Positions 12,911-41,654 of a DNA stretch of 64,000 nt are shown piece after piece (within the stretch, counting starts at the first letter, position 1; each line of letters begins with the position of its first letter). A model generated the notes under the pieces. That model saw only the letters and a list, made by a program, of their open reading frames with translations. It was not told the DNA's origin and did no database searches. The position numbers were made by a program, and so were the translations under genes. The stretch comes from a virus (Duplodnaviria; Caudoviricetes). The stretch lies in the IMG/VR virus record IMGVR_UViG_3300021387_000110, positions 3,130 through 67,129 of that record; one strand, 5' to 3'.

Positions 12911-13858
12911 CTACATAGAAATCTTCCCAAACTTTTTCTCGATTGCCGATATGTCCCCTTTGTAGAATACCAGGATATTCTGATGATGGCGACCTATCTT
13001 CCTTGACCTATCAAAATTCTTTGGTGCTCTTATAGGTAAACTCCCAATAGCGTTCTCAAGGATAATCTCATTGTAGTAGTGCAATTCGCAGTGGTCACGA
13101 ATTATCTGAATAGTATCAGGTACAAATCCTCTGTAATAGCTCTTGTCCATCTCGCTCACACTCGCCCGAATTTCTGATACCACAATGACAAAAAAGGAAT
13201 TTGGCTCTAATTTCTGGGCACTCTTATACAGAATGGATGAATATTTATGCAGGAAGTCCTCATAAGTGGGTAAATTACTGAGGTCATTAGGATAGCCAGT
13301 GTATTTTTCAAGATTATAATAAGGAGGACAAGTAAATACCATATTAAACGTACTGACTAACCGGTCTAACTCTACCTCACTATCATCACAACACCAATCG
13401 GCATTACCCTGTATACCTGTGTATTTGATACGAACATTCGCAAATTGGGACACATTCATTTCTGTTTGTACTCCTGACAAATCTATGCCAAAATAATGTC
13501 TACCCAACACAGCGGCTACGGTACCTCTCACGCAGCCGCCAGCAAACGGGTCAAGCACTCTATCACCAGGTCTACTAAACCACTTATACATAAGCTCACA
13601 GAGAAACGGGTCAAACTCACTCACGGATTCAGCCTCTTTGGCGTCTGCACCCCTCGCACTAAACGTATTGGTAGGGGTAGCATTGAAACGCTTTACATCA
13701 CGACCCTTTGTAGAGTCCCTATAAAGGTTCTCCCACTCGTCTTTTCTTCTCTGCCAGTCCCACGATATGGTATTTAATATCGAAAACGGTGGCCAACCGA
13801 ATTTAGCGTGAAGTAAACTACTCGGCACTCTTTGTGGCCCTACATCAAATAAAGGCAT
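12911..13858 (-). CDS. Amino (N6-A/N4-C) DNA methyltransferase-like protein
   Basis: SAM-binding VLDPFAGG and catalytic-like TCPPY motif; FDPFLCELMYKWF pattern of a phage MTase family. Confidence 0.85.
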   Translation of the reverse strand: MPLFDVGPQRVPSSLLHAKFGWPPFSILNTISWDWQRRKDEWENLYRDSTKGRDVKRFNATPTNTFSARGADAKEAESVSEFDPFLCELMYKWFSRPGDRVLDPFAGGCVRGTVAAVLGRHYFGIDLSGVQTEMNVSQFANVRIKYTGIQGNADWCCDDSEVELDRLVSTFNMVFTCPPYYNLEKYTGYPNDLSNLPTYEDFLHKYSSILYKSAQKLEPNSFFVIVVSEIRASVSEMDKSYYRGFVPDTIQIIRDHCELHYYNEIILENAIGSLPIRAPKNFDRSRKIGRHHQNILVFYKGDISAIEKKFGKISM

Positions 13859-14952
13859 TAGCCGTACGCCCTCCTTAATAACTTCTTATTGACCAGCTTC
13901 TCGTATGCCTTAGATTTCTCTATGGGATAGAACATATAATTATCCCAAATCTCTTGCAAACTTTCACCAGGTGCGCCGGTCTCTTTGATAATGGTTCTCT
14001 CCAATATCTCAAAACAATGGATGTAATAGTCCTCATTGTATTCTACTTTACCTGTGTCAGCGAGCCACATCCACTCCATACAGCACTTCCAACAACAGCC
14101 GCACCTATCAGGAAAAACTCTCACATTGTATTTTTCCTCAGTGCGATGTTTCCAATGTGCCCTAAATCTGAATGGACTCATACACGATACGGACATACCG
14201 AAAAGCTCCCAATCTTCTTTCAGCAGGTCAAAAGTATCTGCATTAGATTTAAGAGGTATTTCTATATCGAACTCAGGTAACACGGACTGTATGATTTTAC
14301 GATATGCGTCCCACATTTCTATACAGTCACCAGCACACACCTCAAACTCATTCATATCCAATGTGGACTGACTGAAATTGCCAAACGCTATAACAGGCGT
14401 ATAACCGTTATACAGACAGTAATGAATAGCCCCATTGGCAATAATATAATTTTTAAGCGGATGCTCAATAAAATCGTGTTTGCCTTCCAGCTTGATATTA
14501 TCTATATGAAGGTCACAGCCCAGATATTTCGCTATCTTCGCTGCCGCCTTCTTCTCGTCCCCGTATGCTTTATTAACGCCGGCCGCGTGGTATAGATGTA
14601 CTTTATAACCTTTCTTGATATAGTAATAGGCACAGGCTGCACTATCTTTACCGCCCGACAGGCAGACAGTAATCTCTTTGGGACGAGAAGTAACAGGAGT
14701 TATAGGCGGCAGGTTCAGAGGCTTCTCAACAGGTGGATTAAAGCTGACAAGGTGCTCCTGTAAAATTCTGCATAGCGGTGCAAATGATGTATCAACCCAG
14801 ATAACATCATCAAACATCCTGTCCGAATCTGAGATATACGCATATAACCCCTCCAGGATATTGAATACCCTACTCTTGTTCTTGTAAACGTGAAGAACCC
14901 TCTGCACCGATTTTCGCCATCCCTTCCAAAGCACTCTCAAGGCGATTAACAA
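13858..14952 (-). CDS. QueC-like PP-loop ATP pyrophosphatase with N-terminal extension
   Basis: LSGGKDS PP-loop; SC...CGCCWKC zinc motif; true start may be GTG 14907. Confidence 0.75.
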   Translation of the reverse strand: MLIALRVLWKGWRKSVQRVLHVYKNKSRVFNILEGLYAYISDSDRMFDDVIWVDTSFAPLCRILQEHLVSFNPPVEKPLNLPPITPVTSRPKEITVCLSGGKDSAACAYYYIKKGYKVHLYHAAGVNKAYGDEKKAAAKIAKYLGCDLHIDNIKLEGKHDFIEHPLKNYIIANGAIHYCLYNGYTPVIAFGNFSQSTLDMNEFEVCAGDCIEMWDAYRKIIQSVLPEFDIEIPLKSNADTFDLLKEDWELFGMSVSCMSPFRFRAHWKHRTEEKYNVRVFPDRCGCCWKCCMEWMWLADTGKVEYNEDYYIHCFEILERTIIKETGAPGESLQEIWDNYMFYPIEKSKAYEKLVNKKLLRRAYG

Positions 14953-31386: not shown

Positions 31387-32283
31387 TTATTTGTCCTCCT
31401 TTTTATATGAACCGCTTATGATTTTAGGAACTGCGTGTTCCCAATTGATAGAATGATGAATACGCTTGTGCCGTGAGCCTACTGTATAGAGCTTCACAGA
31501 CGATGGATTACTTATTACGGTAAAGAATGATTTTACATACGTGCCAGCGTTCAGATACAACTCCGTCATACCGCCTGAGTTAGCCTGTGTCTGTGTCTGG
31601 TCAAGCGACATATCAGAAACCGTAAAGAACAAATGTCCTTTTGAACCCAAGTTTACATAGGTATTTACATCTTCATTGATACGTCCTATAAAATCAAATC
31701 TATTCTCGGTCTTGCAGAAAAAGGAATTCATAGCTTTTCGTGCCAGCTTATCTTTGAACACCTTACTCCCACTACCGCCTATGAAGTCACCCGTCTGTGC
31801 AAATGCGACTGTTAAGGCGCCTGACGTTTCAAGGAACTCAATCATACAATCAACAACCGCGTCAAAGTCTTTGAGATACCACGAACCAAATTCACCGTTC
31901 TCTTTAACGAACCTCTGACGGAAGTTTGTATAGTCATCATCAAGCTCCAAGAAATACTTGTACCCTAACTTCTCAGCTATATCGAAACAGGCATTACGAG
32001 CATAAACGATTGCCCGTCTATCTGCTCCTCTGTCTATCGTATCGAACTCGGTAGACTTTTTCAGCTTGTCAAACATTTCCACATTCTCGTGACCATACAT
32101 ACGATAATACTCTTCGGCTTTCTTATCCTCATTATCTATAACAAGAACAATCTTGCCAGTATAACCAGCATTTTTCAATGCCTGTATCGTATATACTTTT
32201 TCAGGTCGTCCGTGTGTGAGAATGAAGGCTACAAAATCATTTCTCATTTCCTGCAATCTCTCCGCTCTGTTCAAGGATGGCAC
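31387..32283 (-). CDS. GT-A fold glycosyltransferase, copy 1
   Basis: FILTHGRP, IVYARNA, FLELDDD, GRINEDV; start likely MRNDF (32247). Confidence 0.8.
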   Translation of the reverse strand: MPSLNRAERLQEMRNDFVAFILTHGRPEKVYTIQALKNAGYTGKIVLVIDNEDKKAEEYYRMYGHENVEMFDKLKKSTEFDTIDRGADRRAIVYARNACFDIAEKLGYKYFLELDDDYTNFRQRFVKENGEFGSWYLKDFDAVVDCMIEFLETSGALTVAFAQTGDFIGGSGSKVFKDKLARKAMNSFFCKTENRFDFIGRINEDVNTYVNLGSKGHLFFTVSDMSLDQTQTQANSGGMTELYLNAGTYVKSFFTVISNPSSVKLYTVGSRHKRIHHSINWEHAVPKIISGSYKKEDK

Positions 32284-32635
32284 GAATATCCTTACTGAGC
32301 TTCACATAGCCCTTTGCTATGGCGTCATCAATATCCAAGATAACCAAAGCACTATCTTCCATAAGCTCCTGCATTTCTGCTGAGGCGTGGGCATAATAGT
32401 CAGCTATTTTGGCATATCTGAATACTATATGACGAGCAGCCGCAAACCGTAAAAATTTCTTCTCCTCTTCGGTCACACCGGACTTATTGATTTTGGCAAG
32501 TAATTTACTGTACTTTCCATAATCAATTAGTTCCTCTAAACGAGGCTTATCTTTACTGGGAACATACTGAGGCACTTCTACCTTTTTAGTATAACGCTTA
32601 TCCTCAGGCTGCTGTTGTATGTCAAACAACCGCAC
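32237..32635 (-). CDS. Conserved small partner of phage glycosyltransferases
   Basis: YTKKVEVPQY...AAARHIVFRYAKIADYYAHA...SALVILDIDDAI; sandwiched between the two GTs. Confidence 0.75.
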   Translation of the reverse strand: MRLFDIQQQPEDKRYTKKVEVPQYVPSKDKPRLEELIDYGKYSKLLAKINKSGVTEEEKKFLRFAAARHIVFRYAKIADYYAHASAEMQELMEDSALVILDIDDAIAKGYVKLSKDIRAILEQSGEIAGNEK

Positions 32636-32637
32636 AA

Positions 32638-33507
32638 CTACACTTCCTTTCTATATGAACTGCTGATTATCTTAGGCACACAACTCTCAGGCGTAGTCGT
32701 TACAGCCCAATCTTTTCCGTATCGCATAATATTAGATGATGGATAAGCAATAATTGGCATAAAGTTTACTTTGAACTTACCAAGCTTACGATATACGTCA
32801 CTATTGCCGCCATCAACAACGCCCTCACTCATACGAATATCAACTTGTAACGGTAAAAATTGAAACCAGACTTGATTTTTTATGGCACCATCAATAGACG
32901 TTATCAAATCCTCTACCATATTAAGTCGCCACTTAACTTCATAATCTGTATTCCTTATAAAAGCCTCTGCACAAAGACGCTGACGAGGATTTTCTTTTTC
33001 AAAATTATCAACACCGCCGATATATAAATTACAAAAGCCAAGTCCCATACAGGCAACTTTCTTTGTAATTACATATTCAACACACAGGTCAATAATTTCA
33101 TCAAGACATCCTTTAGGACTATAAGACTTCAACACTCCATTATCAGGTACCCTTACTCTAATATTAGTGATGTCGTCATCCAACATCATAAAGGCGTCAT
33201 ATCCGTTACACAGTGCAATATTTTCTATGGCATTACGAGCAAACACCGCAAAGTTAGGTTCGGGAGAACTCAATCCTGTCTCGGTACGACCTATAAACAC
33301 ATCTTTGTTAAACCAAGCAACGTCTTTATAGGTTTCCATATACTCAGAAAAAGTTTCATCCTGGTCATCTATTACAAGATATATTTTACCTGTATAACCA
33401 AGTCTACGCAAAGTTTCCAGCGTTAATTGATTATGCGGTCTACCGTGTGTAAGTATGAAAATAGCAAATTTTCTTTTATGCCGAGTATATCCGTCTCGGA
33501 ACTTCAT
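32638..33507 (-). CDS. GT-A fold glycosyltransferase, copy 2
   Basis: FILTHGRP, AVFARNA, FMMLDDD, LNMVEDL; paralog of 31387-32283. Confidence 0.8.
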   Translation of the reverse strand: MKFRDGYTRHKRKFAIFILTHGRPHNQLTLETLRRLGYTGKIYLVIDDQDETFSEYMETYKDVAWFNKDVFIGRTETGLSSPEPNFAVFARNAIENIALCNGYDAFMMLDDDITNIRVRVPDNGVLKSYSPKGCLDEIIDLCVEYVITKKVACMGLGFCNLYIGGVDNFEKENPRQRLCAEAFIRNTDYEVKWRLNMVEDLITSIDGAIKNQVWFQFLPLQVDIRMSEGVVDGGNSDVYRKLGKFKVNFMPIIAYPSSNIMRYGKDWAVTTTPESCVPKIISSSYRKEV

Positions 33508-40390: not shown

Positions 40391-41265
40391 TAGAAGTCAG
40401 TCCTCCTTCCTCGCTTTCGCAAATTTTCTCTACGGTCCTCTTCTGTATCATCCGCACTCTCACACGATACGCCATCTCCTTCAGAGAAAACGTCTCCGCT
40501 CGGATTAAGTGAATTAAACTCTTTGAATGGGTAAAATGATAGCCACGCTTTTGCCGTACTCTGCAATACAATCTTGACTTTGGTCTTGTCATCTTTCGCC
40601 AGAGTTGACAGAGTATTGAGCAACCCTTTCCATTGATTAACTCCATAAATAGGCTTATCACGAACTGATAAACGGAACTGGAGATAATCTATCAAAACAT
40701 CCTGCAATTCAAGATTTTTGGTATAGAGGAGAATTTCATCCTCACACTTACTATACAAACTCTTTTTAGGAGTTTTTACCTTACGAGCCGATTTATTACT
40801 TCCTAAAAAACTCTCTCGCATTTCAGCAGGACTATAACTATGCTGTTCAAAATCTGATTTGTCCTGCTCGCTCATATTATTTCCATTTATGGAAATAATA
40901 TCCCTATTTACTTCTTTCTTATCTTCTATATTATTAGTACAACTGAGTTGTATAGGGTGTACAACTGAGTTGCATACTATACAACTATACTCACAAAACC
41001 GTACACCGTTCTTCTCGACCTCGAATTTCTCTATATAACCCTTGTCGATAAGGTTTTTCAGGTTCTTTTGCACGCCTTGTTTAGTTGCCCCGCACCAATC
41101 TGCGAGATATTGTAGGCTGCCAGTAAAGCGAGTTTCACCGTCTTGACTGAATCCATAGATGATTGCATAGACCAGCAAGTCATTTCCTTTCAGGTTTAAT
41201 TGTGTTCGCATCCATCCTTGGATAGTAATAAACTGTTCAGCTTGCATATCGGTAAATCTCCTCAT
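40390..41265 (-). CDS. Replication initiator with N-terminal wHTH
   Basis: LLVYAIIYGFSQDG...FTGSLQYLADW...LKNLIDKGYIEK; upstream of loader/helicase; alternative start 41247. Confidence 0.8.
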   Translation of the reverse strand: MRRFTDMQAEQFITIQGWMRTQLNLKGNDLLVYAIIYGFSQDGETRFTGSLQYLADWCGATKQGVQKNLKNLIDKGYIEKFEVEKNGVRFCEYSCIVCNSVVHPIQLSCTNNIEDKKEVNRDIISINGNNMSEQDKSDFEQHSYSPAEMRESFLGSNKSARKVKTPKKSLYSKCEDEILLYTKNLELQDVLIDYLQFRLSVRDKPIYGVNQWKGLLNTLSTLAKDDKTKVKIVLQSTAKAWLSFYPFKEFNSLNPSGDVFSEGDGVSCESADDTEEDRRENLRKRGRRTDF

Positions 41266-41274
41266 AAAAGTAAT

Positions 41275-41317
41275 AAACGCAAGAGAGAAGTGTTGCGGGC
41301 ACTTATCTCTTGCGTTT
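41275..41317 (-). terminator. Long hairpin/terminator between RNA cassette and initiator gene
   Basis: 12-bp AAACGCAAGAGA/TCTCTTGCGTTT plus 5-bp inner stem, followed by T-rich run. Confidence 0.7.
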
Positions 41318-41366
41318 GTGTTGGTTGTATTCTGCGGTGATTGACACCCGCAATGCCAACCAACTG

Positions 41367-41462
41367 TGGATACGATTGCAGGAATCGAACCTGCACAGCC
41401 GGCGGTATGCCTGTATTACATCACTTACTTCCCCCGGAATGCTGCCATTACATCAAATCGTC
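41367..41462 (-). ncRNA. tRNA-shaped RNA (96 nt) with 31-nt loop replacing the anticodon loop
   Basis: Acceptor GACGATT/AATCGTA, D arm ATGT-AATGGCA-GCAT, stem CCGG/CCGG, T arm GCAGG-TTCGATT-CCTGC, encoded CCA. Confidence 0.75.
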
Positions 41463-41537
41463 TGGTTGCGGAGAGGGGACTCGAACCCCCGACATCTTGG
41501 TTATGAGCCAAGCGAGCTACCACTGCTCTACCCCGCG
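41463..41537 (-). tRNA. tRNA-Met(CAT), initiator type
   Basis: Full cloverleaf, CAT anticodon, C1:A72 mismatch, A11:U24, encoded CCA. Confidence 0.95.
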
Positions 41538-41542
41538 GTATC

Positions 41543-41617
41543 TAATCGAGAGGCAGCCGCCGACTGCTTTCAACTGATACGGCGCCGTCACGGGAAGATG
41601 TGACGTTCTCTCGATTA
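41543..41617 (-). ncRNA. Multi-branched structured leader of the RNA cassette
   Basis: 10-bp TAATCGAGAG/CTCTCGATTA closing stem, CGTCAC/GTGACG and GCAG/CTGC arms. Confidence 0.55.
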
Positions 41618-41625
41618 CATATATT

Positions 41626-41654
41626 ATTATAGCATACCTCCAGATAAATTGCAA
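41626..41654 (-). promoter_or_regulatory. sigmaA-type promoter of the RNA cassette
   Basis: TTGCAA-17-TATAAT with TGn. Confidence 0.85.

Follow-up and report, generated by a model that had tools for sequence, protein, structure and literature searches.

Phage tRNA clusters have long been known to contain small tRNA-related RNAs of unknown use. In the T4 record, rnaC and rnaD are annotated as "small, stable RNA" and stand head-to-tail behind a tRNA gene, in the order tRNA-Arg, 1 nt, rnaD, 6 nt, rnaC; rnaC keeps a T-arm and an acceptor-like stem. These species 1 and 2 RNAs were reportedly described by Paddock and Abelson in 1975 as non-decoding RNAs of unknown function, and to our knowledge they have gone unexplained for 50 years. 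The mascRNA at the 3' end of MALAT1 and the t-elements of plant mitochondria are tRNA-shaped and non-decoding, and an RNase P cut at them makes the 3' end of the upstream RNA (PMC1920247). Mimicry of the tRNA acceptor and T-arm is also reused for non-decoding roles in bacterial and phage RNAs such as tmRNA and YrlA-type Y RNAs, of which YrlA has its ends on the "anticodon" side and is found alongside a Ro60 gene (PMC4201824). The "enigmatic" tRNA introns of Lak megaphages are inserted after an intact anticodon loop, at position 37/38, which allows prediction of a decoding tRNA (Devoto et al. 2019, PMC6784885). They are the only reported precedent for short inserts in phage tRNAs.

We analysed a 64,000-nt stretch of DNA (the window), which covers the greater part of a phage genome of 67 kb that has direct terminal repeats (IMG/VR); nearly all its genes are on the minus strand. 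A scan of about 50 open reading frames (ORFs) identified PolA, DnaB, a primase, a clamp and clamp loader, RecA, RecU, DNA modification functions and a Gram-positive-type endolysin. A Gram-positive host is suggested by two features, the Amidase_2+SH3_3 endolysin and strong Shine-Dalgarno sites. Two TET-associated glycosyltransferase (TAGT) genes, a QueC-like PP-loop ATPase and a DNA methylase (31387-33507, 13858-14952 and 12911-13858) suggest that the phage carries hypermodified DNA bases.

An RNA operon on the minus strand begins with a sigma-70-type promoter (TTGCAA, a 17-nt spacer and a TG-extended TATAAT; 41626..41654) that has 10 of 12 consensus matches and is conserved in relatives; judged by these motifs, it is predicted to be strong and should drive the operon. 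It is followed by a structured 5' leader (41538..41619, minus strand), whose closing stem, UAAUCGAG.../...CUCGAUUA, is conserved and whose interior is hypervariable. Between promoter and tRNA-Met, 13 leader types of 69-113 nt occur among relatives, one of them with a tandem duplication, and ARAGORN in mitochondrial mode assigns a tRNA-like fold to the leader of the window. Next comes an initiator-type tRNA-Met(CAU) with an encoded CCA (41463..41537, minus strand), the sole tRNA found in the window by ARAGORN and Rfam (Rfam tRNA score 63 bits). Its initiator marks, read from the sequence, are a C1.A72 mismatch, A11:U24 and two of the three anticodon-stem G-C pairs. Close relatives differ in the discriminator of this tRNA-Met, with A, U or C ahead of the CCA, an unusual feature in a functioning initiator tRNA.

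Directly behind the tRNA-Met lies a 96-nt tRNA-like element that runs from G1 to CCA on the minus strand (41367..41462) and was delimited by sequence reading, low-threshold ARAGORN, a pair check and comparison of alleles. As the first-pass annotation had proposed from the same coordinates, it is a tRNA-shaped RNA fused to tRNA-Met with zero spacer, G1 (41462) being the base right after the CCA of tRNA-Met. The acceptor stem consists of 6 bp plus the mismatch G1.A72, and its 3' strand is followed by a discriminator U and CCA (41367..41377, minus strand). The D-arm, AUGU/AAUGGCA/GCAU (41439..41453, minus strand), has a 4-bp stem and is invariant in all variants, and the T-arm, GCAGG/UUCGAUU/CCUGC (41378..41394, minus strand), has a 5-bp stem. 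On the anticodon side (41399..41437, minus strand), CCGG-G-GG faces CC-G-CCGG around a central G.G mismatch and closes a 25-nt loop, which is itself able to form a 4-bp D-arm-like hairpin. All 21 pairs of the element are standard in the pair check. The conserved bases U8, A14, G18, G19, A21 and G53-C61, the T-loop UUCGAUU, the discriminator U and the CCA are intact, so that the D-loop GG, T-loop and CCA described earlier, together with the mismatched G1:A72, are all present in the sequence. So is the described absence of an anticodon loop with its U33 context. The earlier picture of a 31-nt loop on a CCGG stem stood as regards a non-anticodon insert, and is refined here to a 7-position stem with a 25-nt loop. 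The same intergenic region was found, identical, in one ENA and one Logan assembly, with variants in three more data sets; the element is not an assembly artefact.

T4 rnaC/rnaD and the mascRNA/t-element class are the closest analogues of the element. Like the T4 genes, it is a small RNA gene set head-to-tail behind a tRNA gene. The T4 RNAs differ in being longer (119 and 139 nt) and much less tRNA-like, whereas the element is a full cloverleaf with an encoded CCA and zero spacer, and blastn (E<=10, 50,697 phage records including T4) revealed no sequence similarity between them. As with mascRNA and t-elements, an upstream RNA end could be made at the element; from the substrate features, the end predicted to arise in this case is the CCA of tRNA-Met. 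Those systems are eukaryotic or organellar and mark the ends of mRNAs or lncRNAs, whereas here relatives mature tRNA-Met without the element. With tmRNA and YrlA the element shares an acceptor and T-arm put to non-decoding use. What is distinctive is the combination: a small, complete and self-duplicated cloverleaf that adjoins an initiator-type tRNA without spacer and is naturally polymorphic.

Known tRNA-related classes were considered as identities for the element. The Rfam tRNA model RF00005 gave no match to it at E<=10, whereas the neighbouring tRNA-Met is readily scored. ARAGORN detected it only when introns were allowed and the threshold was set at 90%, as a "tRNA-Val(UAC)" with a 24-nt intron, A33 and C37, a call that we regard as implausible. 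A tmRNA requires G3.U70, a tag reading frame and pseudoknots; the element has C3-G70, and the ARAGORN tmRNA search was negative even at an 80% threshold. Group I introns measure about 200 nt or more and have a P1-P9 core. The insert is only 25-31 nt and Rfam found no intron family, in agreement with the first-pass annotation, which had judged it too short for such an intron. A YrlA or other Y RNA was rejected as well, because the element ends at its acceptor stem and no TROVE/Ro60 gene occurs among the approximately 50 ORFs scanned.

The element could also be an intron-bearing tRNA whose insert is removed by an undefined route, as suggested for the Lak megaphages, to leave a decoding tRNA. Besides the low-score ARAGORN call, the short tRNA introns of gut Lak phages (PMC6784885) favour this reading: they too are short, conserved anticodon-side inserts, found in tRNA genes of gut or rumen phages and variably present between close relatives. 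The Lak introns, however, follow an intact anticodon loop (PMC6784885), whereas the element has no anticodon loop before or after excision. We tried all single cut points in three start and four end registers, leaving a 17-nt anticodon arm, and no single excision left both a 5-bp stem and a loop with U33 and purine 37 (best score 5 of 7); the reading as a spliced tRNA was rejected on this ground. RNA ligase, RtcB and splicing endonuclease were likewise not found among the approximately 50 ORFs scanned. Two 151-nt contigs from a bovine metatranscriptome library span the element unspliced and joined to both neighbours; they may derive from DNA and are weak evidence that the element is carried unspliced in RNA. 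The RNA runs X18-X22 cover little or none of the stretch. The sole "skipping" form is an allele from a DNA run in which the element is missing in its entirety. On this balance, removal of the insert to give a decoding tRNA is very unlikely, and the earlier description of an RNA that is tRNA-shaped, and neither a normal nor an intron-bearing tRNA, is upheld.

Relatives were gathered by searching for exact matches to the flanking 78-aa protein and to its homologues; this recovered about 45 loci, which came from gut assemblies of ruminants, pigs and others. Sequencing runs that contain the stretch come from goat, sheep and bovine gut or rumen samples. Most relatives have the same tRNA-Met, and the slot right after its CCA occurs in three states. 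In the empty state, CCA is followed by TAGTTGG (CAGTTGG in L057). In the second state, the slot holds the element as an exact unit from G1 to CCA (the window with L013, L014 and X4, and also L029, L039, X2 and X15). The element occurs as five haplotypes, all from ruminant-gut samples, and most relatives are without it. The third state is a different, 77-nt insert of four tandem stable hairpins (L015-18, L040 and L058-59). In its representative at L015:1912-1988, one hairpin has a GCAA tetraloop and the minimum free energy (MFE) is -35.7 kcal/mol (z=-4.75). It matched no Rfam family, so an HDV-like or other known ribozyme or sRNA was rejected as its identity, and it may represent another type of small-RNA cargo. 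Slot state is reshuffled independently of leader type and tRNA-Met allele, the element itself occurring with three leader types and three tRNA-Met alleles. Because it is present or absent as an exact unit and is shuffled independently, the element is an accessory cassette. Farther relatives, found through the flanking proteins, have no tRNA at all at the locus. In run X18, an RNA-library contig that corresponds to 41463-41533 has this tRNA-Met with a fourth sequence downstream, unrelated to the others, which may reflect more slot variants or the presence of this tRNA-Met in other phages.

The search for homologues of the element, which the first-pass annotation had advised, returned nothing beyond this lineage. 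In INPHARED (blastn, E<=10, 50,697 phage records), the only matches to the element were short T-arm matches to tRNA-Trp genes; matches to tRNA-Met were reported too. IMG/VR, scanned with four exact or IUPAC patterns, had no match, and a covariance-model search (R1) identified no homologue in the window, 15 loci and 5 related virus records. A 20-mer scan of 185,579 GTDB species genomes did not find a matching tRNA. One 20-mer from the T-arm and acceptor stem of the element, GGTTCGATTCCTGCAATCGT, is present exactly in five Acinetobacter/Moraxellaceae genomes (L008-L012), about 1.5 kb from tRNA-SeC (selC), where ARAGORN calls no tRNA; these matches are probably due to chance.

The GTDB result bears on whether the element acts at the DNA level, either as a copy of a host tRNA gene that serves integration or recombination, or as part of the replication origin. 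Its position just upstream of the replication initiator gene and the behaviour of the slot as a hotspot of alternating inserts would fit such a role. Against it, no matching tRNA was found among the 185,579 species genomes, no integrase occurs among the approximately 50 ORFs, and the phage looks lytic, with terminal repeats and its own replisome. An attP site requires only the 3' part of a tRNA, whereas here the whole cloverleaf is kept, with compensation of the RNA type (through G.U, see below). We consider a DNA-level role very unlikely.

The slot is followed by a conserved RNA structure that lies ahead of the HTH_36/DnaD-like replication gene (leader 41248..41366, with the two hairpins placed at 41270..41366, both minus strand; in relatives L005:3344-3444, L007:3289-3391, L015:1989-2094 and L020:1921-2027). 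It comprises a long hairpin, GUUGGUUGG...CAACCAAC, and a terminator-like hairpin with a U-rich tail. The loop of the terminator-like hairpin pairs with a stretch within the long hairpin. This long-range pairing covaries across classes (UUGCGGG/CCCGCAA, UUUCGGGG/CCCCGAAA, UUGUGGGGGU/ACCCCCACAA and UUACGGG/CCCGUAA), as does the terminator stem. The conserved leader looks like an uncatalogued riboregulator, a pseudoknot or antiterminator switch, gating the replication operon.

The origin of the insert was indicated by a repeat search, which found a 21-nt direct repeat within the element, at 41435-41455 and 41403-41423 on the minus strand, with 16/21 identity and a spacing of 32; one of 2000 shuffles matched this identity. 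The first copy comprises U8, G9, the D-arm, U26 and the first three stem bases of the anticodon side. The second takes up two-thirds of the insert and includes the potential D-arm-like hairpin of 4 bp. Thus the element's own U8/D-arm segment, in diverged form, accounts for 21 of the approximately 31 nt of the insert. From this repeat, the anticodon loop appears to have been replaced by an imperfect self-copy of that segment, and the insert does not look like imported guide cargo.

This origin weighs on the idea that the tRNA body is a scaffold and that the 25-31-nt loop is the active part, as a guide to host RNA, a protein site or a mimic of translation start beside the initiator tRNA. The loop reads GGGAAG-UAAGUG-AUG-UAA, with a G-rich Shine-Dalgarno-like run, an AUG and a UAA; one allele improves the run to GGAGG, and the match is imperfect in four of the five haplotypes. 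AUGUAA also occurs in the element's D-arm, and we gave less weight to the start-site mimic because the AUG-UAA stems from the D-arm copy. The loop shares ten bases with the start region of the 78-aa gene, a level at which about 11 shared 10-mers are expected by chance. A target search run against the phage genome yielded no partner better than those of shuffled loops (best antisense energy -29.1 kcal/mol vs -21.8 to -32.7 for shuffled loops). With the energy at shuffle level and the sharing at chance level, the idea of a guide directed at phage mRNAs was rejected. In favour of an active loop, any two alleles compared differ at only 1 of its 25 bases; against it, three of the eight substitutions described below fall in the loop. 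The purpose-built guide or decoy loop envisaged in the first-pass annotation is not borne out by these results, and an active loop of any of these kinds is in our view doubtful.

Variation among the five haplotypes amounts to eight distinct changes, numbered here along the 96-nt element. Three lie in the loop (A34G, A49U and A51U), G60A falls at the G.G mismatch, and U68C is at tRNA position 48. A92U (L039) turns G1.A72 into G1.U72 and so repairs the 1:72 mismatch. The remaining two, C70U and G84A, are in the T stem, where pair 70:84 (tRNA 50:64) is C-G in the window, U.G in X2 and U-A in L029; this series is the classic route of compensation. None of the eight substitutions breaks any of the 21 pairs (random placement P=0.028, from a small, shallow sample; up to three further differences in read-derived contigs are outside the eight and could lie in a stem). 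When the window is compared with L029 or L039, the element diverges by 3.1%, similar to tRNA-Met (1.3-2.7%), with 1.7-2.5% for the downstream riboregulator and 10-40% for third codon positions of the flanking genes. The divergence of the element is therefore 3- to 13-fold under that of flanking third codon positions, for which a recent recombinational spread of the tRNA-Met/cassette block could be an alternative cause.

Such a block spread is part of the view that the element is a neutral relic: the remnant of another phage tRNA gene that an internal duplication inactivated, now being lost as a pseudogene, whose conservation is only apparent. The insert is a self-duplication of the kind produced by replication slippage, most relatives have no element and no distant homologue was found in the databases searched, all of which favours a relic. 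The MFE fold of the element sequence also did not recover the cloverleaf and was no better than shuffles (z=+0.35), although tRNAs often fail this test, and we set the result aside for that reason. On the other side stand the absence of pair-breaking substitutions, the compensatory series, the intact core tertiary bases, the low divergence and the persistence on three leader and tRNA-Met backgrounds. In addition, the two repeat copies already differ at 5 of 21 bases, yet the 21 cloverleaf pairs are perfect. The first-pass annotation had named random decay of the arms as the sign of a pseudogene; what was found is non-random. We regard a neutral relic as possible, with a chance in the region of one in five or slightly better.

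The reading we prefer, at a probability of roughly 45%, is that the element is a functional non-decoding RNA built on a tRNA body, descended from a tRNA gene with a self-duplicated loop, and that its role depends on the body. The element has the anatomy of a tRNA without its decoding loop, an internal duplication, the behaviour of a cassette and a structure-preserving pattern of evolution. From the promoter at 41654..41626, a single precursor would carry the leader, the initiator-type tRNA-Met, the element, the riboregulator/terminator and the replication genes. The sequence contains RNase P substrate features, namely an acceptor/T stack, the T-loop, the bases of the D/T-loop contact and RCCA. 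As the acceptor stem, T-arm, D/T-loop contacts and UCCA are intact, we infer that host RNase P would cut exactly 5' of G1 (CCA|G1). One such cut would complete the CCA-OH end of tRNA-Met and at the same time free the 5' end of the element RNA, which would be stable, L-shaped and about 96 nt long.

This RNA would be unable to read a codon. Some synthetases ignore the anticodon and use other identity marks. The element has C3-G70, a short variable loop and A at position -1; lacking both an anticodon and the marks of these synthetases, its RNA would probably be uncharged. That the tRNA body is kept by selection while the loop drifts suggests a role resting on the body and not on a guide loop. Such a role might be a "cut-here" punctuation for the operon RNA, of the mascRNA/t-element kind, or that of a decoy or competitor for a tRNA-binding factor. 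Against a body-dependent role stands the absence of the element from most relatives, which also makes it dispensable for maturation of tRNA-Met. The alternative 77-nt cargo is not tRNA-like, which argues against a slot that serves purely as RNase P punctuation. Mimicry directed at tRNA-binding factors through the tRNA body is possible as a model.

A more specific version of the body-dependent reading, which we hold to be unlikely, is that the cassette encodes a non-decoding tRNA decoy made together with the phage initiator tRNA. If so, this RNA, uncharged and L-shaped and with its 1:72 pair mismatched, would titrate a host factor that targets or checks tRNAs, with a tRNA-targeting defence nuclease or nucleotidyltransferase as possible targets, and the presence or absence of the cassette in the population would track hosts with that defence.

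Among the small tRNA-related RNAs of phages, the element is an unusually clean and small case, with a full tRNA body, a replaced decoding loop and a visible origin by self-duplication. Genes of this kind are silently missed by tRNA finders. Natural alleles with and without the element on otherwise near-identical phages provide a ready-made genetic comparison. If the tRNA body is active, the element would show phages recycling broken tRNA genes as processing signals or decoys.
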